Shown here: piece after piece, positions 1,138 through 42,341 of the stretch | How the letters are laid out: each line of letters begins with the position of its first letter | How positions within the stretch are numbered: position 1 is the first letter of the stretch | Origin: Alphaproteobacteria bacterium | GTDB lineage: Bacteria; Pseudomonadota; Alphaproteobacteria; Bin95 | Assembly: GCA_965206075.1 (NCBI GenBank) | Contig: CBDBIS010000005.1 | Location: forward strand, 3,155,041 to 3,219,040 | DNA: 64,000 bases | Direction: 5' to 3' | Notes under the pieces: model-generated | The model's database searches: none | What the model saw: the letters and a program-made list of their open reading frames with translations, nothing else | What the model was told of the DNA's origin: nothing | Translations under genes and position numbers: made by a program

Positions 1138-2339
1138 GCGCCGGCCTCCAGAAATGCGTCGATTCGTTCCTCGACCGCCCTGTGCAGCGCGTCGCCGGGC
1201 GTTTCGTCCAGGATCTCGGAAAGGAATGCGCGCACGAGAAGCCCGCGGGCGGTGTCGGCGGGAATGCCGCGTGTGCGCAGATAGAAGAGCGCGTCCCCGT
1301 CTATGTCGCCGGCCGTCGCGCCGTGGCTGCACTGGACGTCGTCGGCATAGATTTCGAGCACCGGCTTGGCGTCGATCTCGGCCCGGCCGGAGAGCAGCAG
1401 CGCGCGGTTGAGCTGGTGGCCGTCCGTCTTCTGCGCGCCCTCGGCGACGACGATATGGCCCTGGAAGACGCCGCGTGCCTGCCCGCCGATGGCGCCCTTG
1501 TACACCTGCCGGCTGGTCGCGCCCGGCGCGCGGTGCTCGATGCGGCTCGTATGGTCGGCAAGCTGCCGGCCGGCGACGGCATAAGCCCCCTTGAGGGAGA
1601 GTTCCGCGCCTTCGCCCAGGATTTCGGTCTCGATCTGGTTGCGCGAAAGCCGCGCGCCGAAGGTGAAGACCGTGCTCTCCAGCACCGCGTCCTGGCCGAG
1701 CCGCGCGGGCATGAACCAGAGATGGTGCGCGTCCGTCCCTTCCTCCTGGAGCTTGGTGTGGCGCAGCCTGCCGCCGGCTGCCACTTCGACCTCGGTCACG
1801 CCGTTGACGAAATAGGCGCCGGTTCCGAGCCCGATATGGCGTTCTACGACATGCGCCTCGCCGCCCGGTTCGACGGCGATCCGGTTGCGCGACTGGGCGA
1901 CCGGCCCGGTCCGGCCCGGAACGGTCGCATGGACGATCTCGATGGGTTCTTCCCGCGCGTCGCCCACGGTCAGGACATAGCCGTCGCCCGACATGGCGGC
2001 GTTGAGCGCGACCAGTGGCTCTCCCTCCGCGCCTGCTGCGCCGTTCGGCCCGGCCCAGCGGCCGACGGGAACGGTCGTGAGGTCCTCGCGCAGGAAGCCG
2101 TTGACCAGGACGATGCGCGGCCCGTCGCCGAGAAAGGGCACCGCTGCTTCCATATCGGGCCCCGCCGGCCGGAAGCGCTGGCGCGCGAGCGGGCGCAGGC
2201 TCGTATATTTCCACGCCTCGACACGGTTGGTCGGGAAGCCCTTCGCGGCGAAGGCCTCGAAGGCGGCCCCGCGCTCGCCCGGCAGCGAGGCGCGGATGCT
2301 CTCGAACGCCTCGCGATAGGTGTCCACGCCGAGCGTCAT
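1134..2339 (-). CDS. sufD: Fe-S cluster assembly protein SufD
   Basis: 401-aa ORF (MTLGVDTYREAFESIRASLPG...). Sits between sufC and sufS with 4-nt overlaps. SufD-like C-terminal region. Confidence 0.85.
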   Translation of the reverse strand: MTLGVDTYREAFESIRASLPGERGAAFEAFAAKGFPTNRVEAWKYTSLRPLARQRFRPAGPDMEAAVPFLGDGPRIVLVNGFLREDLTTVPVGRWAGPNGAAGAEGEPLVALNAAMSGDGYVLTVGDAREEPIEIVHATVPGRTGPVAQSRNRIAVEPGGEAHVVERHIGLGTGAYFVNGVTEVEVAAGGRLRHTKLQEEGTDAHHLWFMPARLGQDAVLESTVFTFGARLSRNQIETEILGEGAELSLKGAYAVAGRQLADHTSRIEHRAPGATSRQVYKGAIGGQARGVFQGHIVVAEGAQKTDGHQLNRALLLSGRAEIDAKPVLEIYADDVQCSHGATAGDIDGDALFYLRTRGIPADTARGLLVRAFLSEILDETPGDALHRAVEERIDAFLEAGA

Positions 2340-3084
2340 GCCGCCTCGCCCATGATTTCGCCGTAGCCCTTCTCCTCCAGCTCGAGTGCGAGCTCGCTGC
2401 CGCCCGAACGGAGGATCCGGCCCTTCGCCAGCACATGCACCCGGTCCGGCACGATATGGTCCAGCAGGCGCTGGTAATGGGTGATGATGAGCATCGCCCG
2501 GTCCGGCGAGCGGAGAGCGTTTACCCCTTCGGCGACCACCTTGAGCGCGTCGATGTCGAGGCCGCTGTCGGTCTCGTCGAGGATCGCCAGTCGCGGCTCC
2601 AGAATCGCAAGCTGGAGCATTTCGTTGCGCTTCTTCTCGCCGCCGGAAAAGCCGACATTCAGCGCGCGCTTCAGCATGTCGTCGCCGATGCCGAGCGCGC
2701 GCGCCTTCTGGCGCACGACGCGCAGGAACTGCATGGCGTCGAGCTCGTCCTCGCCCCGGCCGCGCCGGAGCGCATTGAGCGCCGTGCGCAGGAAGGTCAT
2801 GGTGCCCACGCCCGGAATCTCGACCGGATACTGGAAGGCGAGGAAGAGGCCGGCCGCCGCGCGGTCCTCCGGCTCCAGCTCCAGCAGGTCCCGGCCGTCG
2901 TAAAGCACCTCGCCACGGTCCACCGTGTAGCCCTCGCGGCCCGAAAGCACATAGGAGAGCGTGCTCTTGCCGGACCCGTTAGGGCCCATCACGGCATGCA
3001 CCTCGCCGGCGCCGACGGAAAGGCTGACGCCGTTCAGAATCGCCTGGTCCTCGACCGAGGCGTGGAGATCGCGGATTTCAAGCA

Positions 3085-3085
<1 letters not shown>
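2336..3085 (-). CDS. sufC: Fe-S cluster assembly ATPase SufC
   Basis: Start moved to the internal ATG (MLEIRDLHASVEDQ...). Walker A GPNGSGKST and Walker B LAILDETDSGLD. The upstream part of the track ORF is Arg/Pro-rich shadow. Confidence 0.9.
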
Positions 3086-4535
<1,450 letters not shown>

Positions 4536-11109: not shown

Positions 11110-11352
11110 CGGGACGCCGTATGCGCTTATCTCCTTCCGGTCGGTATCCGGCGCACCCGCCGGCTCGGCCTCGCCCCGCCTGCCCCGCAGAAGCGGGGGC
11201 CGGCCGTGCGGCGCGGCGAGGCGCCGCCGGGTTGTGAGCAAGGGGATAAACGGGTGACGGTACAGACCGGATAGACGGGCAACAGTTTTCCTTCTTCGTT
11301 CGGATTCGAGCGAGGACATAGAAAAATTTTCATGTTTCGCCCGCCAGGGGGC

Positions 11353-11379
11353 TTGACTGGGAGAAAAGTGTAGTAGAAT
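11353..11379 (+). promoter_or_regulatory. sigma70-like promoter motif of module copy 1 (TTGACT-15 nt-TAGAAT)
   Basis: The same motif, spacing and GGGA..AAAGTG spacer recur at copies 3 and 4. The 15-nt spacer is shorter than optimal. Confidence 0.45.
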
Positions 11380-11391
11380 GCAGGATGAGAG

Positions 11392-11422
11392 AAGGCGGCT
11401 CTCCGGGGCCGCCTTTCGGCTT
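11392..11422 (+). terminator. terminator-like hairpin plus U-rich tail at the module 5' end; intron insertion site
   Basis: AAGGCGGC (11392-99) pairs with GCCGCCTT (11408-15) and is followed by TCGGCTT. Equivalent hairpins with UUUCCGCUUUUCU tails occur in copies 2 and 4. Confidence 0.45.
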
Positions 11423-12093
11423 GTGTGCCGAGCATGGCCAACAGCTTGGAGGTGCAAGTCCTCTATCCAGCCCGATGGCGGCGAAGGATTAGCGAAGCGC
11501 AAGGGCGTCGCCGCGAGGCGGGGTCTGAAGGAAGCGTGGAGCAAAGCCGCGACCCGATGGACAAGAACCGGATACGAGGCCTACCCGGCCGGACGAGCGA
11601 GCAAGCGATCGCGAAGTCCGCAGCCATCAAGGGCCGGGGTGGTAAATCCGGCGGGTGTGCGGTGAAGGCGGTTGGTCTTACCTCGGGAGGTCTGCGTCGT
11701 GTCCGGAACCCCCGGACTGAGCGGTTCCGCAAGGGCCGTGATCGCGGCGCAGAAGTCAGCAGAGGGCATAGTAGCCGGCCCCCCGGCGAAGGCCCGAACG
11801 ACGGACAGGGTTATTAGGACGGCAGGCTCATGCGGACCAAGCGGCAGAACATCCAGTTGGAACTGGCCTTGGAGCCGGAGGCGAGGGGTGAAGCCCGGAG
11901 CGCCGGAGACCGAGGGACCGAAGCCCGTATGGCGCGTGCCGACCCCGAACGCCCGGCGGCTGTCTTCGACAGGCTCGGCCTCGCCTCCCTGCGAGGCCGT
12001 TCCGCAGCTTAAATCCGTCGAACCGCCGTGTACGGACCCGTATGCACGGTGGTGTGGGAGGGGTGGAGCCGTGAGGCTCCCCCCTATCCCGAT
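11423..12093 (+). mobile_element. ORF-less (RT-deleted) group II intron, class C-like
   Basis: Boundaries follow from comparison with the uninterrupted copy 2. 5' end is GTGTG and 3' end is ...GAT. Hand-folded domain V (12022-12053, with CGC triad and 2-nt bulge) and domain VI (12056-12090, with GUGA loop and bulged A12086). An IEP remnant ORF lies inside. Confidence 0.75.
11830..12012 (+). pseudogene. remnant of the intron-encoded reverse transcriptase/maturase (N- and C-terminal stubs only)
   Basis: 60 aa: MRTKRQNIQLELALEPEARGEARSAGDRGTEA...FDRLGLASL. Resembles IEP termini as I remember them. No RT motifs are present. Confidence 0.55.
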
Positions 12094-12483
12094 TTCTGCG
12101 CAGGGAAACAAGGGCTGGGGCCGAAAAAAGCTCCGGCGGGAACGAACGGGAGACGTGCGCCTTCCGTCTCGCGCGCGCAATCAGCCGCGCGAACCGCGCC
12201 GGCGCTGACGCGCGCGGGCGGGCACGGGCGCGCGCGCAGGATACGCGCGCAAAAAGGGTCCCGCCGCCTGGGGGCGCCCAGGCCGGCAGCGGCGCGGACG
12301 GAATGGAGCGGAACGCGACGGAGCAAACGATATGCAGGAACGGAACCGCAGAGCTTCGGAGGCGGCATGAGGAACATGACAATCCATGACACATTGCAGG
12401 GGTCATTCATGAATCGCCCCGCCTGCGCGCTGGCGGAAGCGGCCGGCGACGCCCGGCAAGGCCCCGTCTGAGCAGCCATGGAT

Positions 12484-12840
12484 AACGGTTTTCTGCGTTC
12501 GTTCGGCTTCCGGGGCCGCCTTTCGCTTTTCTGCGCAGGGAAGCAATGGCTGGGGCCGCAAAAAGCCCCGGCGGGAACGGACAGGCGAGTTGCGCCTGCC
12601 GCCTCGCGTGCGCAATCGGGTGCGCGAGCCGCGCTGGCGCAAGACGCGGGGGCGGCAAGGGCGCGCATGCAGGATACGCGCGCAAAAAGGGTCCCGCTGC
12701 CTGAGGGCGGCCAGGCCGGTGGCGACGCGGACGGAATGGAGCGGAACGGAAAGCGACGGAGAGAACGACATGCAGGAACGGAACTGCGGAGCTTCGACGA
12801 TGGCATGGCGAACATGACACTTCATGACACAATGCAGGGG
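12484..12840 (+). repeat. GC-rich non-coding module, copy 2 (no promoter motif)
   Basis: Uninterrupted gccgcctttcgcttttctgcgcaggg junction. More diverged core, CATGGC/CATGAC/CATGAC at 12804/12813/12823, and TGCAGGGG ending at 12840. Confidence 0.75.
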
Positions 12841-12851
12841 TCTTCCATGAA

Positions 12852-12887
12852 CCTTCCCGCCCCGGATCGGGGTTCGGGGCGGGAAGG
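12852..12887. terminator. 13-bp GC hairpin between convergent module copy 2 and the amidase gene
   Basis: CCTTCCCGCCCCG...CGGGGCGGGAAGG. Possibly a bidirectional terminator. Related to the GTCGCCCCGG palindromic elements. Confidence 0.4.
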
Positions 12888-12957
12888 GGACTCATGCAAT
12901 GCCGATCTGCCGCCGGCAGCCGAGTGTATCCGGCAGTCCGCAAACGGGAGAGGCGGC

Positions 12958-22016: not shown

Positions 22017-22886
22017 TCATGTTTTGTCATGCGGCGGGGTTGCGGCGGTGGCTTGCCGCCTGTCGGGGCCGGCGTTTCGGACGCGGGCGAGAGTGCGGGC
22101 GAGGGAGGCTTCCGTGCGGCGGTGCTGCCTTTCGTGCCATGCCGTGTATTCGGGCGAGGGCAGCTTGCCGACGAACTTCCGCCCGCTGACATGGCAGTCG
22201 ATCGGGCCGCCGAGGCCCCCGCCTATCGTGACCGGCCCGAACCGGCGCTCCTTGTCTTCCAGCCACGCCCGGAACTCGGGCGTCTCCTGGCTGCCGGCCC
22301 AGACCTCGCCGCCATAGTGGAACTCGTCCTCGCTGCCGTCATAGTCCGACACATAAGGGTCGGGCTCTTCGAACGGGTCGTCGAGACCGTCCAGAGGCTC
22401 CTCGACGGGTTCCGGTTCCGGTTCGGGCAGGTGCGCGGCGGCCCAGTCGAGCACGGCGAGGAGCTGGCGCAGATGGCTGAGCCGGGCGCGTCCGGCGCGG
22501 TGGCGTTCGGCAAGTGCGCGGTCGTCCTCCGGCGGCGGCCCGGCGCTTATACCAGCGGTCGTTGATCGGAACCTATGGTGATGGTCCCCACCGTCACCCC
22601 GGCCTCCGAGCCGGGGGCCAGCCTCGGTTCTCGCGGCAACTTCAGCGGTCGAGCCTGCTCTCCACCGGCTACGGCATCGTCGAGAGCCATGGATGGACCC
22701 CGGCTCTCCGCTTCGCTCCGGCCGGGGTGACGCAGAGGGAAAACCGGGCGGCAATCTCCATGAGTCACAAACCGGAGCCGCTGGTATTAGGTCTTCGGCA
22801 TAGGCTTCGGCGAGGGCTTCGGCGGCCGGCGCCAGCCCTGCGGCCAGCTTCGCCGCCAGTTGGGGGCGGGGGTCGGTTGCAGTCAT
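22017..22886 (-). CDS. hypothetical acidic protein (289 aa as it stands; 209 aa before the MITE insertion)
   Basis: ATG preceded by AAGGAGGA. High G/C at codon position 3 in codons 1-31 and again after the MITE, with poor coding character inside 22547-22789. No domain that I recognise. The track ORF extends upstream to 23453 through the non-coding core. Confidence 0.5.
   Translation of the reverse strand: MTATDPRPQLAAKLAAGLAPAAEALAEAYAEDLIPAAPVCDSWRLPPGFPSASPRPERSGEPGSIHGSRRCRSRWRAGSTAEVAARTEAGPRLGGRGDGGDHHHRFRSTTAGISAGPPPEDDRALAERHRAGRARLSHLRQLLAVLDWAAAHLPEPEPEPVEEPLDGLDDPFEEPDPYVSDYDGSEDEFHYGGEVWAGSQETPEFRAWLEDKERRFGPVTIGGGLGGPIDCHVSGRKFVGKLPSPEYTAWHERQHRRTEASLARTLARVRNAGPDRRQATAATPPHDKT
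22550..22786. mobile_element. 237-nt MITE with 9-bp TIR TACCAGCGG/CCGCTGGTA and 3-bp TSD TTA
   Basis: TSD copies at 22547-49 and 22787-89. Internal long palindrome CGTCACCCCGGCC...GGCCGGGGTGACG (22592-22732). Element plus TSD is 240 nt, so the host ORF stays in frame. Confidence 0.7.
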
Positions 22887-39921: not shown

Positions 39922-40308
39922 CCCTATGTGTCATGAAGCGTCATGTTTTGTCATGCGATGTCATGTTCGCCATGCCCTTGCCGGCGTTGCGCCGTGCCAT
40001 TCCGGCATATCGTTTTCCATCGCGTTCCGCCTTCCTCCGTTCCGCCGTCGCCGGCAAAGCCTCCCATGCGCCCGGACCCTTTTTGCGCGCGTATCCTGCG
40101 TGCGTGCCCGCGCCCGCCTGCGCGCGTTGGCGCCGGCGCGGTTCGCGCACCTGATTGCGCGCGCGAGACAGCGGACGCACTTCGCCTGTCCGTTCCCGCC
40201 GGGGCTTTTTTCCGGCCCCAGCCATTGCTTCCCTCAGCAGAAAAGCGGAAAGGCGGCCCCGGGAGCCGCCTCTCTGCCGCCATTGTAGCACACTTTTCCC
40301 AATGTCAA
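39922..40308 (-). repeat. GC-rich module, copy 4, forming the leader of the VOC-amidase-AtzH-like operon
   Basis: Promoter motif at 40308-40282, hairpin with UUUCCGCUUUUCU, and a core nearly identical to copy 1. GTCATG at 39930/39940/39950/39960, then CCATG. Confidence 0.8.
40282..40308 (-). promoter_or_regulatory. sigma70-like promoter motif of module copy 4 (TTGACA-15 nt-TACAAT)
   Basis: Reverse complement of tgtcaa (40303-08) and attgta (40282-87). TG lies 1 nt upstream of the -10 (extended -10-like). Confidence 0.5.
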
Positions 40309-40332: not shown

Positions 40333-40536
40333 TCAGTCCCGGTAGTCCCGCACCGCCTTCGGGTCGAGCCGGTCGGCCGGGACGAGGCGGTAATGCCGCT
40401 CTTCCACGACCTTCAGCCGGATTGCGGCCGCCTCAATCTCTTTGCGCTCGAATTCGAACTCGGTAATTCCCTCGCTGTAATGATCGAAAAATATCGTTTC
40501 GATTATCGCTCTATAGTCGACTCGCAGTTTAGCCAT
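40333..40536 (-). pseudogene. 67-codon ORF after dcm, possibly the N-terminal stub of the cognate restriction endonuclease
   Basis: MAKLRVDYRAIIETIFFDHYSEGITEFEFERKEIEAAA... The first ~40 codons are A/T-rich at position 3 and the remainder is G/C-rich like host DNA. Start overlaps the dcm stop by 8 nt. Confidence 0.35.
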
Positions 40537-41932
40537 AAGCTCTCCGCTCTGCGACGAATTCACGTTCGATATCCACCTGTTTGCGCTTCTTGGCGCCGCT
40601 CTTGCGATCACGGCGGTTGGGTCTGGCCTCTACGCCGAAATATTGGGCCGCGGCGGGAGCATCGAGCACTAACAGGGCAGTGTCGCCGAGCGGTATGGAA
40701 GCCTCGGGCCGGGCGGGGTTCGCACCGAGGGCCTCGACGACGTTGCCGGCGATCGCGCGGGCGAGCGGCGGGGGCACGGCATTGCCGATCTGGCGCGCAC
40801 CGTGCCATTTGGTGACATGGAAGCGGAACCAGTCCGGGAAGCCGTGCAGCCGGGCCATCTCGCGCACGGTCACGCAGCGGTCGTGGCGGTAGTGAATCGG
40901 CCGCGGGCTGGTGAAGGCGCCCCGCGCCCCGTCCGTGCCGGCGCGGAGCGTGTTCGAGACGCCTGTTTCCGCGAGCTTGAAGAACCGGCTGATCGGCTCG
41001 ACCGCGCCCGCTTCCGTTTCACGGAACCGGCGGCGCGAAATCTCCGTGTGCCGTGTGCGGGAACTAGCGGTCAGCAAGGCGGGATTCCACTCGCGCACAT
41101 AGCCGTAATGCCATGCGTCGTTTGCAAGGCAGCGCAGCGATGCCGCATAGGCCGAAGGCTCTCCGAACGTCCTCGTCTCCACGGAGTCGGAGCCGCACAG
41201 CGCGTCGAAACCCTCGGCGTCGGGAAGGTCGCCCAGCGCATCGGCACAGGTCGGCCCAACGGGTAGGGCGTCCACGCGCCGCCGCTTGCCGGCGATACCG
41301 GTCAGCGGTGCGGGATAGTCGGGCAGGCGCTCGCCCTTTCGCGCGCCGAGCAGGATCAACCGTTCCCGGCTCTGCGGTACGCCGAAATTGCCGGCGTTCA
41401 GGACCCGCCAGGGGACCCGCACCTCGTAGCCGGCGTCGGAAAACGCCTCGACAAGTTCGTCGAGGAGGGCGCGATGCTTGCCGACCGTCAGCCCTTTGAC
41501 ATTCTCGAAGACGAATGTGCGGGCGTCCAGTTCCGCAACGAGGCGCACGAACTCCCGGACCAGCCGGTTGCGCGGGTCGTCGAGAATGCGGTGGCCGATG
41601 AGGGAGAATCCCTGGCAGGGCGCGCCGCCGAACACGCAATCGACCCGACGACCGCCAAGTCCGGCCGCTCGCGCAATTCCGGCCCCGGAAAGGTCCTCTA
41701 CCGCGCAGGGCACGATGGCCGTCCGGGGAAAGTTGAACTTGTGGACCGCGCAATGCACCGGGTCGATTTCGACTGCGGCGGCGACGTCGAAACCGGCCTG
41801 CTCGAAGCCGAGGCTGAGGCCGCCGGCGCCGGCGAACAGGTCGATCCCGATGGGCCTCACAGTGCTGCGCTTCCGGATGCCGGTGCCATTCTGCAGGATA
41901 TTAGCGCGCCTACCGCTAGATGTCGATCGCAT
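40529..41932 (-). CDS. dcm: DNA (cytosine-5)-methyltransferase
   Basis: Motifs FAGAGG (I), GGAPCQGFS (IV), ENV, QSRERL and GNAVPP (X). Start at the internal ATG overlapping the vsr 3' end. Confidence 0.9.
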   Translation of the reverse strand: MRSTSSGRRANILQNGTGIRKRSTVRPIGIDLFAGAGGLSLGFEQAGFDVAAAVEIDPVHCAVHKFNFPRTAIVPCAVEDLSGAGIARAAGLGGRRVDCVFGGAPCQGFSLIGHRILDDPRNRLVREFVRLVAELDARTFVFENVKGLTVGKHRALLDELVEAFSDAGYEVRVPWRVLNAGNFGVPQSRERLILLGARKGERLPDYPAPLTGIAGKRRRVDALPVGPTCADALGDLPDAEGFDALCGSDSVETRTFGEPSAYAASLRCLANDAWHYGYVREWNPALLTASSRTRHTEISRRRFRETEAGAVEPISRFFKLAETGVSNTLRAGTDGARGAFTSPRPIHYRHDRCVTVREMARLHGFPDWFRFHVTKWHGARQIGNAVPPPLARAIAGNVVEALGANPARPEASIPLGDTALLVLDAPAAAQYFGVEARPNRRDRKSGAKKRKQVDIEREFVAERRAYG

Positions 41933-42341
41933 TTTCCGCGTTGTCCACAAAATCTTGTAGCCGTTTCGCCAGAACATCCGGGTCGCGGGTCTCGCATTGC
42001 CAGACGGTCAGCACGCTCCAGCCCAATGACTCTATTTGTTCCTTCTTGGTTCTATCTCTTTTCCTGTTTTCGTCAAGTTTGGGTTTCCAGTATTCGAGGC
42101 GGGATTTCGGCAGCCGCCCTTTCGGGCAGTCGTGGCCGTGCCAGAAGCAGCCATGCACGAAGATCGCCTTGCGCCGGGAAATGAAGGCGATATCGGGTCT
42201 GCCGGGGAGGTCCTTGCGGTGCAGGCGGTACCGGTAGCCCATGGCGTGCAGCAGCCGGCGCACGGCCAGTTCGGGTCCTGTGTGCTTGCTCCCGACCGCC
42301 TGCATGATGCGGCGGCGCTGCTCCGGGGTGCGCGTGTCCAT
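41916..42341 (-). CDS. vsr: very short patch repair endonuclease
   Basis: MDTRTPEQRRRIMQAV... and FVHGCFWHGH motifs. Start at the internal ATG of track ORF 41916..42410. Confidence 0.85.
   Translation of the reverse strand: MDTRTPEQRRRIMQAVGSKHTGPELAVRRLLHAMGYRYRLHRKDLPGRPDIAFISRRKAIFVHGCFWHGHDCPKGRLPKSRLEYWKPKLDENRKRDRTKKEQIESLGWSVLTVWQCETRDPDVLAKRLQDFVDNAENAIDI

Follow-up and report, generated by a model that had tools for sequence, protein, structure and literature searches.

The closest described relatives of the element reported here are group II introns of class C (IIC), among them GsI-IIC (Geobacillus stearothermophilus), B.h.I1 and O.i.I1, which are found behind intrinsic terminators. 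The characters described for the class are a short exon-binding site 1 (EBS1), an EBS3, targeting of stem-loops, an IIC-type intron-encoded protein (IEP) without endonuclease (En) domain, and a short domain V (DV) with a CGC triad (PMC4424553). The IIC-attC introns of integrons, e.g. S.ma.I2, recognize a repeated DNA stem-loop and not a long sequence (PMC4424553; PMC3001079). Regarding introns without an open reading frame (ORF), the survey of Simon et al. 2008, as summarized in PMC4424553, describes bacterial ORF-less introns served in trans by related IEPs, and trans splicing is reported there for a cyanobacterial IEP. Bacterial ORF-less introns nearly always share the genome with related IEP-encoding introns (PMC4424553), and C.te.I1 of Clostridium tetani is ORF-less with no IEP gene anywhere in its genome (PMC4424553). 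In this work we analyzed a stretch of 64,000 nucleotides (nt), hereafter the window, from contig CBDBIS010000005.1 of an alphaproteobacterium from a sponge-associated community. It contains an insert of 671 nt (11423-12093, + strand), which is very probably a non-autonomous, ORF-less class C group II intron whose splicing in vivo and mobility would depend on protein supplied in trans.

Like GsI-IIC, B.h.I1 and O.i.I1, the window intron has a small ribozyme with a CGC triad and a short DV, and its full-length parent encodes an IEP without endonuclease whose full-length match to the GsI-IIC reverse transcriptase (RT) scores 498 bits. The target is also alike, a hairpin with a short tail that carries an intron-binding site 1 (IBS1) of 3-4 nt and an IBS3 of 1 nt, in agreement with the IIC targeting described in PMC4424553. 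In contrast to these three introns, the window copy is without the ORF, and its lineage has a structured arm of about 150 nt in domain IV (DIV) that is mostly annotated as an N-terminal protein extension of 49 amino acids (aa). The target hairpin also differs from that of typical IIC introns, because it lies just downstream of a promoter-like element within a repeated module and not at a gene end. As in the IIC-attC introns, the target is a stem-loop in a repeated element; however, the module is not an attC site, no integron integrase is nearby, and promoter-like and repeat motifs are present instead. Compared with the surveyed ORF-less introns, the window copy likewise appears to co-occur with near-identical full-length copies, a potential source of protein in trans. 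Whereas those introns are called rare (PMC4424553), 9-10 of 36 complete copies of the window lineage, drawn from several phyla, are ORF-less (among the matches listed), and independent deletions have the left breakpoint in common. C.te.I1 is ORF-less as well, but the genome of the window apparently has intact IEP genes of the same intron.

The insert interrupts the first of two tandem copies of a conserved module of approximately 400 nt. Copy 1 reads ...ggccgcctttcggctt/GTGTGCC...CCCGAT/ttctgcgcaggg or, with more of the intron, ...ggccgcctttcggctt/GTGTGCCGAGC...CCTATCCCGAT/ttctgcgcaggg, and copy 2 reads ggggccgcctttcgctt/ttctgcgcaggg, with the uninterrupted site at 12528/12529. This comparison leaves a slide of 1 nt, with a T at the end of both the 5' exon and the insert, which is resolved by the GUGYG start (GUGUG, 11423-11427) and the AY end (GAU, 12091-12093) of group II introns. 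The first-pass annotation had placed the borders by the same comparison and read GTGTG and GAT at the ends; re-reading of the sequence agrees on both points, and the same ends were found at a second site. There, on a 318-kb metagenome contig (L001), the same 671-nt element occurs with 98.8-99.0% identity (98.8% over a 680-nt alignment). Its homology to the window consists of the intron and merely 3 nt and 6 nt of similar flank, the flanks beyond the borders being unrelated, and it is placed after a different hairpin (gggaccggcgcttccggcgtcggtccc) followed by TTTCTT, downstream of an SSB-like gene and with NADAR, Macro and Toprim genes around it. Five contigs, L001 among them, carry a record of the identical 60-aa product of 11830-12012. 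Two sites with the deleted form, in unrelated surroundings, thus confirm the borders independently. The copy behind an unrelated hairpin also shows that the 671 nt are not part of an ancestral module. The first-pass annotation had itself allowed for this alternative, in which the other module copies would be deletion forms, and it is now hardly conceivable: nothing speaks for it, more than 100 unrelated hairpins from many phyla precede the same intron 5' end (among the matches listed), and the 671 nt match three group II intron covariance models.

These models come from a whole-window Rfam scan at gathering thresholds, which gave exactly three matches, all within the insert, colinear and on the + strand: group-II-D1D4-3 (RF02001) at 11507-11676 (134.6 bits, E=1.3e-27), group-II-D1D4-1 (RF01998) at 11719-11794 (51.7 bits), and Intron_gpII (RF00029; DV and domain VI, DVI) at 12021-12093 (45.2 bits). 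The first-pass annotation had folded only the 3' end by hand and named a covariance search as its check; all three matches are above gathering and domain I is present. Judged from its sequence, 11423-12093 is a complete group II intron. Its nt 1-378 are 77-86% identical to introns on Burkholderia, Klebsiella and E. coli plasmids, which are full-length introns of 1865-1941 nt.

The interaction of the intron with its exons can be followed by covariation. The EBS1 loop reads GC(AAGC)GA, and in both the window and the full-length relative L119 the EBS1-IBS1 pairing has 4 base pairs (bp; AAGC with GCUU). Exon positions -1 to -3 all pair with the EBS1 loop in 62 of the 66 distinct site-loop combinations (24 loop triplets; matches listed), while shuffled pairing gives a mean of 9.3 and a maximum of 18 of 66. 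By position, the paired fraction is 0.97, 0.95, 0.98 and 0.39 at -1, -2, -3 and -4 (66 sites, matches listed). Beyond -4, the variable part of the 5' exon is located within the hairpins. The four EBS1 positions are the most variable intron positions among family copies in sponge metatranscriptome contigs, consistent with retargeting through loop changes. Regarding EBS3, intron nt 223 is A in all 29 copies with a T as first 3'-exon nucleotide and G in eight of the ten with a C, and it is the best column of nt 1-400 (matches listed). Nucleotide 142 was also considered as EBS3 and dropped in favor of nt 223.

In DV, the lower helix pairs A12022-G12030 with C12045-U12053, including the wobble G12025.U12050, and the triad C12024-G12025-C12026 aligns to the AGC of the Rfam consensus. 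The domain has 30-32 nt, below the canonical 34 nt, and the bulge is either A12042-U12043 or U12043-G12044. The helix, the G.U pair, the CGC triad and the 32-nt length of the earlier hand fold therefore stand, but its 4-bp upper helix and bulge are one of two registers. The second register has a U12031.G12044 pair, the bulge A12042-U12043 and a 3-bp upper helix, with a triad-to-bulge spacing of 18 nt, which we take to be that of the Oceanobacillus iheyensis IIC structure. It is closer to the canonical DV geometry, yet both registers are equally possible. The proposed DVI, with its GUGA loop and A12086 unpaired 7 nt before the intron 3' end, is borne out by the Intron_gpII alignment and by direct reading.

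A protein search with the 60-aa ORF returned short stub ORFs alone and no full-length IEP. The parent was reached through DNA relatives, the closest full-length IEP encoded at the genome loci serving as query of a second protein search. The parent encodes P0066, a 462-aa RT/maturase with a YADD motif and the full thumb/X region, on L119, where the full-length intron occupies 1413-3289 (1877 nt). Over nt 1-540 of the window intron the two are 99.8% identical, with nt 506 as the one difference, and over its nt 541-671 they are 100% identical. Missing in the window are parental nt 541-1746, i.e. 1206 nt or 402 codons, in frame, from RT0 to the thumb/X region; this clean loss supports the earlier claim that the RT has been deleted. 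No microhomology was found at the junction 11962/11963 when it was looked for. At exactly both junction positions, metagenome contigs leave the window sequence and continue into that of a full-length IEP, and the deleted copy of L001 has the same junction at both ends. On these alignments, the window intron is a recent single internal deletion of the 1877-nt parent.

The protein of the parent also allowed the class assignment. Compared with PDB entries, P0066 scores 497.9 bits with the GsI-IIC RT, 336 with the 7uim intron RT, 272-277 with the 5hhl/5hhj RTs, 132.8 with LtrA and 112.6 with the 6me0 maturase RT, so that its bit score is about 3.7 times higher for the GsI-IIC RT than for any IIA or IIB protein with structure. 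Precomputed Pfam domains of P0066 and its relatives are RVT_1 and GIIM only, with no endonuclease (HNH) domain. A Mesorhizobium relative of 460 aa likewise has RVT_1 and GIIM only by hmmscan, and scores 505 bits with the GsI-IIC RT, whereas LtrA and the 6me0 maturase RT reach 142 and 140 bits. The ribozyme is small (about 445 nt without DIV). A short DV with a CGC and not an AGC triad is a marker of class IIC. Together, the IEP ranking, the lack of En, the short DV with CGC, the short EBS1 and the hairpin sites indicate that the intron belongs to class C, as the first-pass annotation had proposed from the triad, the short DV and the terminator stem-loop; the IEP clade is read from bit scores against solved structures as a proxy. 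There is only a slight chance that the intron belongs to class D, E or F, which also lack En but have IIB-like RNA. This chance stems from the class call being a bit-score ranking, and it has to face the distance of the IEP from the structured IIA/IIB proteins and the insertion behind hairpins with 3-4 nt of EBS1 pairing, in addition to the short CGC-type DV and the ribozyme size.

No Pfam domain was found in the 60-aa ORF or in any ORF overlapping the insert. The earlier description of 11830-12012 as the only ORF was incorrect, as six further ORFs of at least 60 aa overlap the insert in this sequence of 69% G+C. Its ends had been described as stubs of the IEP, and both are colinear with P0066 (residues 1-44 and 447-462), but the N-terminal part appears to evolve as RNA and not as protein. 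Among 17 full-length relatives, the variability at codon positions 1, 2 and 3 is 0.67, 0.84 and 0.78 bits in the N-terminal region, with no excess at the third position, compared with 0.45, 0.44 and 0.98 bits in the downstream RT region. From ten diverse members, RNAalifold derives 45 pairs, of which 20 show compensatory changes. In this alignment of the DIV arm, 91.3% of cells pair, a fraction that falls to 31-44% once the partners are shifted by 1-3 columns, and none of 500 shuffles reaches the observed values. The single-sequence fold of domain IV is not more stable than shuffles (z = -0.56), and for this reason the structure is based on the covariation. The ATG of the stub ORF (11830) lies inside an arm helix (11828-11835 with 11925-11932).

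These results suggest that the first 44 codons are structured domain IV RNA and not protein. The GsI-IIC RT aligns only from P0066 residue 50 on, the Met of MEAVV. Family entries (P0042-P0161) mostly have 458-462 aa and start about 49 codons before the RT0 Met, and a minority have 413 aa; the extra codons overlap the structure at intron nt 408-554 in all family members. In the extension, indels are multiples of three and a Shine-Dalgarno-like AGGA precedes the ATG, so that the extension may still be translated. From these alignments, the IEP itself probably begins at the Met of MEAVV, and the long form is probably an over-extension. In the simplest reading, the deletion would span from 14 nt before this likely start to 46 nt before the stop, and it probably removed essentially the whole coding region save the last 16 codons. 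The DIVa-like arm at 11808-11954 is, by analogy with domain IVa in other group II introns, a probable candidate for the site where the IEP is anchored, and keeping it would permit service in trans.

Regarding the target, the module hairpin has an 11-bp stem of -22.9 kcal/mol (RNAfold, 60 nt upstream of the intron) and a 6-nt tail, CGGCTT, so that the intron starts 6 nt 3' of the hairpin. The same hairpin-plus-tail geometry was found at L001, L004, L005, L006 and L119, and in the first five sampled sites the hairpin ends 6-7 nt before the intron in all five. A one-genome-per-species scan with the first 32 nt of the intron, with three positions free, gave at least 112 loci, which among the matches listed come from Acidobacteriota, Alphaproteobacteria, Latescibacterota, Nitrospirota, NC10, Gemmatimonadota and others. 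For 119 distinct sites (matches listed), the 45 nt upstream have an average minimum free energy of -21.9 kcal/mol, compared with -11.3 in controls placed 400 nt away, and the last 8 nt before the intron contain 4.65 T compared with 1.41. The earlier claim of insertion directly 3' of a terminator-like hairpin thus extends to these 119 sites. The L119 intron occupies the same position of another module copy (...ggccgccttttggctt/GTGTG...GAT/ttctgcgtgggg), which makes the module hairpin a repeated homing site, and the unoccupied minus-strand site at 40243/40242, as its sequence indicates, is a potential one.

Head-to-tail copies were also seen. In L032 (minus strand, starts 1892 nt apart) a second full copy begins right after ...CCTATGTCGAT of the first, and in L097 and L114 the tandem downstream copy begins TTGCCGAGCATG, without the first GTG. 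The tandem copies suggest that the 3' end of the intron itself, the DVI hairpin plus its tail, can act as target.

A source of protein for the window intron probably lies in the same genome. The 90% cluster of P0066 has eight members, of which six, five of them intact at 462 aa and one frameshifted, are on one contig of 3,989,992 nt, and the longest contig with the 60-aa ORF of the window has this same length. It is therefore probable, though unproven, that at least five intact IEP copies are present in the source genome. The first-pass annotation had proposed a search for a full-length, RT-encoding copy in the genome; a near-identical parent and intact IEPs were found, and only their placement in the same genome stays at the level of probability. 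Such probable helpers beside an ORF-less copy match the published co-occurrence rule (PMC4424553). In the proposed cycle, the intron would be transcribed together with the module from its promoter-like element, and the IEP supplied in trans would bind the DIV arm and assist a splicing reaction that restores the module RNA. The ribonucleoprotein (RNP) could then reverse-splice into single-stranded DNA at a terminator-like hairpin followed by GCTT/T (IBS1 and IBS3), and the protein would copy the inserted RNA into DNA, with priming of the cDNA at replication forks, the route described for introns whose IEP has no En domain (PMC4424553).

Concerning expression, family contigs were seen in five metatranscriptomes from sponges, some of them joined to other 5' exons with hairpin and T-run, e.g. 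GGGTGGCGCGAAAGCGCCACCCTTTTTTTG/, and one RNA contig crosses a 3' splice site into the 3' exon of a module copy. These contigs are consistent with unspliced precursors; DNA carry-over is possible. Joints that skip about 1112 nt were considered as splicing and rejected, as they are other module copies; transcripts of empty module copies would in any case look like spliced product.

Several points weigh against an active intron that is mobilized in trans. The joint 11422/12094 (cggctt/ttctgcgcagggaaacaaggg) was unseen in eight runs, five metatranscriptomes included, in which the exons of this module have no RNA coverage, and a 26-mer specific for the deletion junction had no match in the JGI metagenome contigs. 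Mobilization in trans rests on two loci with one junction, the left breakpoint is a recurrent hot spot, and identical independent deletions are unlikely but possible. That the helper contig is the replicon of the window follows solely from the equal nucleotide totals. As to the target, the tail TTTCGGCTT is a weak U-tract, and a terminator scan did not call the module hairpin, whose tail has just 4 T; 'terminator' describes the shape and not a demonstrated function. Finally, IIC introns often splice in vitro by hydrolysis, without branching, despite a normal-looking branch A (PMC4748821).

Part of this evidence would also fit an inert relic, i.e. a full-length intron that homed here, lost its ORF in place and is now a dead insertion, with neither efficient splicing nor movement. 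The unseen spliced joint and the uncovered module exons agree with it, as does the frequent decay of family copies: L102 is without most of domain I, P0164 is frameshifted, and many stub ORFs are truncated. We consider it improbable, however, because the ribozyme parts are 1 nt in 671 from an intact parent, the exon-binding and catalytic motifs are all intact, the identical junction at the unrelated L001 needs movement after the deletion, and the window's own locus in related strains (L002 and L003) keeps the intron at about 99% identity with flanks of about 95%. A very improbable alternative is that the window and L001 are two independent, identical deletions at a hot spot, with no trans-mobilization of the ORF-less form. 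Left breakpoints within 5 nt (nt 538-542) in three independent lineages speak for it, and about half of the 40 stub-ORF clusters lose colinearity with the parent at residues 42-47. However, the right ends of separate events differ by 6-30 nt (1747, 1753 and 1777), while the window and L001 share both ends exactly and no microhomology would guide a repeat. The junction common to two unrelated loci is indirect support for mobilization of the deleted form in trans.

The ORF-less copies among the 36 complete ones have 627-810 nt, and about 22 others have 1718-1962 nt (matches listed). In the three lineages where a full-length relative is available (Table 1), the left end of the deletion lies 6-10 nt 3' of the last DIV-arm pair. 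Possibly only deletions that spare the arm persist and spread, or the mechanism sets the break there. One idea, conceivable but on balance doubtful, is that ORF-less mini-introns, far from being products of random decay, are made recurrently by one mechanism and then spread as non-autonomous retroelements. Speculatively, the intron RNA would be cut within the exposed ORF loop of domain IV, and 3'-5' exonucleases would trim the 5' piece as far as the structured arm with its bound protein, where they stall. The RNP, although nicked, might still reverse-splice, and the RT might bridge the gap by end-to-end template switching, giving a precise ORF deletion in the new DNA copy. Group II RTs are good at end-to-end template switching. 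The repeated promoter-plus-hairpin module might serve in this scheme as a multi-copy landing pad and as a source of transcription.

The module begins with an A/T-rich stretch and a promoter-like pair, followed by the hairpin and the intron site. Next come a core rich in G+C (...GCAGGATACGCGCGCAAAAAGGG) and CATGACA repeats arrayed about 11 nt apart. The promoter-like consensus is TTGAC(T/A/C)-15 nt-TA(G/C/T)(A/G)AT. In the host copy it reads TTGACT-15 nt-TAGAAT at roughly 11350-11380, about 40-70 nt upstream of the intron and in the same orientation; the element is kept in four module copies. A consensus promoter scan did not call the TTGACT/TAGAAT pair with its 15-nt spacer, and the module had no match at gathering in the whole-window Rfam scan. 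Two module copies lie directly upstream of genes, a glyoxalase gene (39934-39479) and an ORF starting near 22885. In one sponge metagenome the sequencing depth is about 30 in the flank, 500-2900 in the intron and up to about 9700 in the module (about 300 times the flanks), so both intron and module are highly repeated there. The module may be a dispersed promoter/leader or a small mobile element. The coordinates of all features are given in Table 1.

Table 1. Features of the window intron, its target sites and host module, and deletion ends in ORF-less copies (window positions unless another locus is named)
Feature	Position	Strand	Basis or detail
Predicted complete ORF-less class C group II intron, GUGUG to GAU	11423..12093	+	Rfam, empty site, L001, L119 identity
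Domains I-III	11423..11794	+	D1D4-3 and D1D4-1 matches
EBS1 AAGC in 8-nt loop GCAAGCGA, hairpin GCGA/UCGC	11603..11606	+	covariation with IBS1
IBS1 GCTT, last 4 nt of 5' exon	11419..11422	+	complementary to EBS1 AAGC
Candidate EBS3, A, intron nt 223, pairs with T12094	11645..11645	+	covariation
IBS3 T, first 3'-exon nucleotide	12094..12094	+	covariation with intron nt 223
Domain IV remnant, basal stem 11799-11805 with 12014-12020	11795..12021	+	single-sequence fold; between D1D4-1 match and DV
Structured 5' arm of domain IV	11808..11954	+	RNAalifold covariation
60-aa stub ORF, 44 DIV-arm codons + last 16 IEP codons (FDRLGLASLRGRSAA) + stop	11830..12012	+	colinear with P0066 1-44 and 447-462
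Deletion junction	11962..11963	+	L119 alignment; 8 nt 3' of last DIV-arm pair
Domain V, CGC triad, 2-nt bulge, GACC loop	12022..12053	+	Intron_gpII alignment, direct reading
Domain VI, GUGA loop, unpaired candidate branch-point A12086	12056..12090	+	Intron_gpII alignment, direct reading
Terminator-like hairpin of host module	11391..11416	+	11394-11401 pairs with 11406-11413, loop 11402-11405
Unoccupied paralogous site, tandem module copy (cgctt/ttctgcg, 12528/12529)	12512..12540	+	hairpin 5' arm largely missing
Unoccupied paralogous site (ccgctt/ttctgc, 40243/40242)	40230..40275	-	intact hairpin, IBS1 GCTT, IBS3 T
Module copies	11330-11422 + 12094-12470; 12478-12890	+	sequence comparison
Module copies	40330-39900; 23180-22890	-	sequence comparison
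Module copy on L119	L119:1290-1412 + 3290-3720		sequence comparison
Deletion ends, window/L001 (ORF-less)	left end nt 540, right end nt 1747		relative L119
Deletion ends, L008 (ORF-less)	left end nt 538, right end nt 1753		relative L023
Deletion ends, L022 (ORF-less)	left end nt 542, right end nt 1777		relative L107

Some further observations were made around these elements. At 12478-12530 the tandem module copy begins ...ggttTTCTGCGttcgTTCGGCTTccggggccgcc, with fragments like the start of the 3' exon and the tail of the 5' exon before half a hairpin; they may be a scar, left either by the duplication or by a rearrangement related to the intron. Immediately upstream of the minus-strand module copy is a gene for a C-5 cytosine DNA methyltransferase (40529-41977, minus strand). 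On the second contig, the genes at L001:2265-6183 encode SSB-like, NADAR, 2OG-Fe(II) oxygenase, Macro-domain and Toprim/DUF7146 proteins, typical of integrative/conjugative elements or prophages.

The window intron is of an already known kind, an ORF-less class C group II intron, and general group II intron biology is unchanged by it; what it adds is modest, namely a deletion boundary common to several lineages and an 'N-terminal extension' that is RNA in nature. For annotation, it is a real mobile element that is missed by gene-based pipelines because it has no RT gene, and its 60-aa ORF should not be called a protein. With exact borders, a parent, a junction, a second site and probable helpers, the locus shows a bacterial retroelement turning non-autonomous. 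In this lineage, thousands of class C proteins are annotated with an 'N-terminal extension' of about 49 residues that behaves as structured domain IV RNA, and the start of these proteins likely lies downstream. The proportion of ORF-less copies, about one quarter of the complete copies among the matches listed, together with the shared deletion boundary, hints at a constraint or a mechanism.

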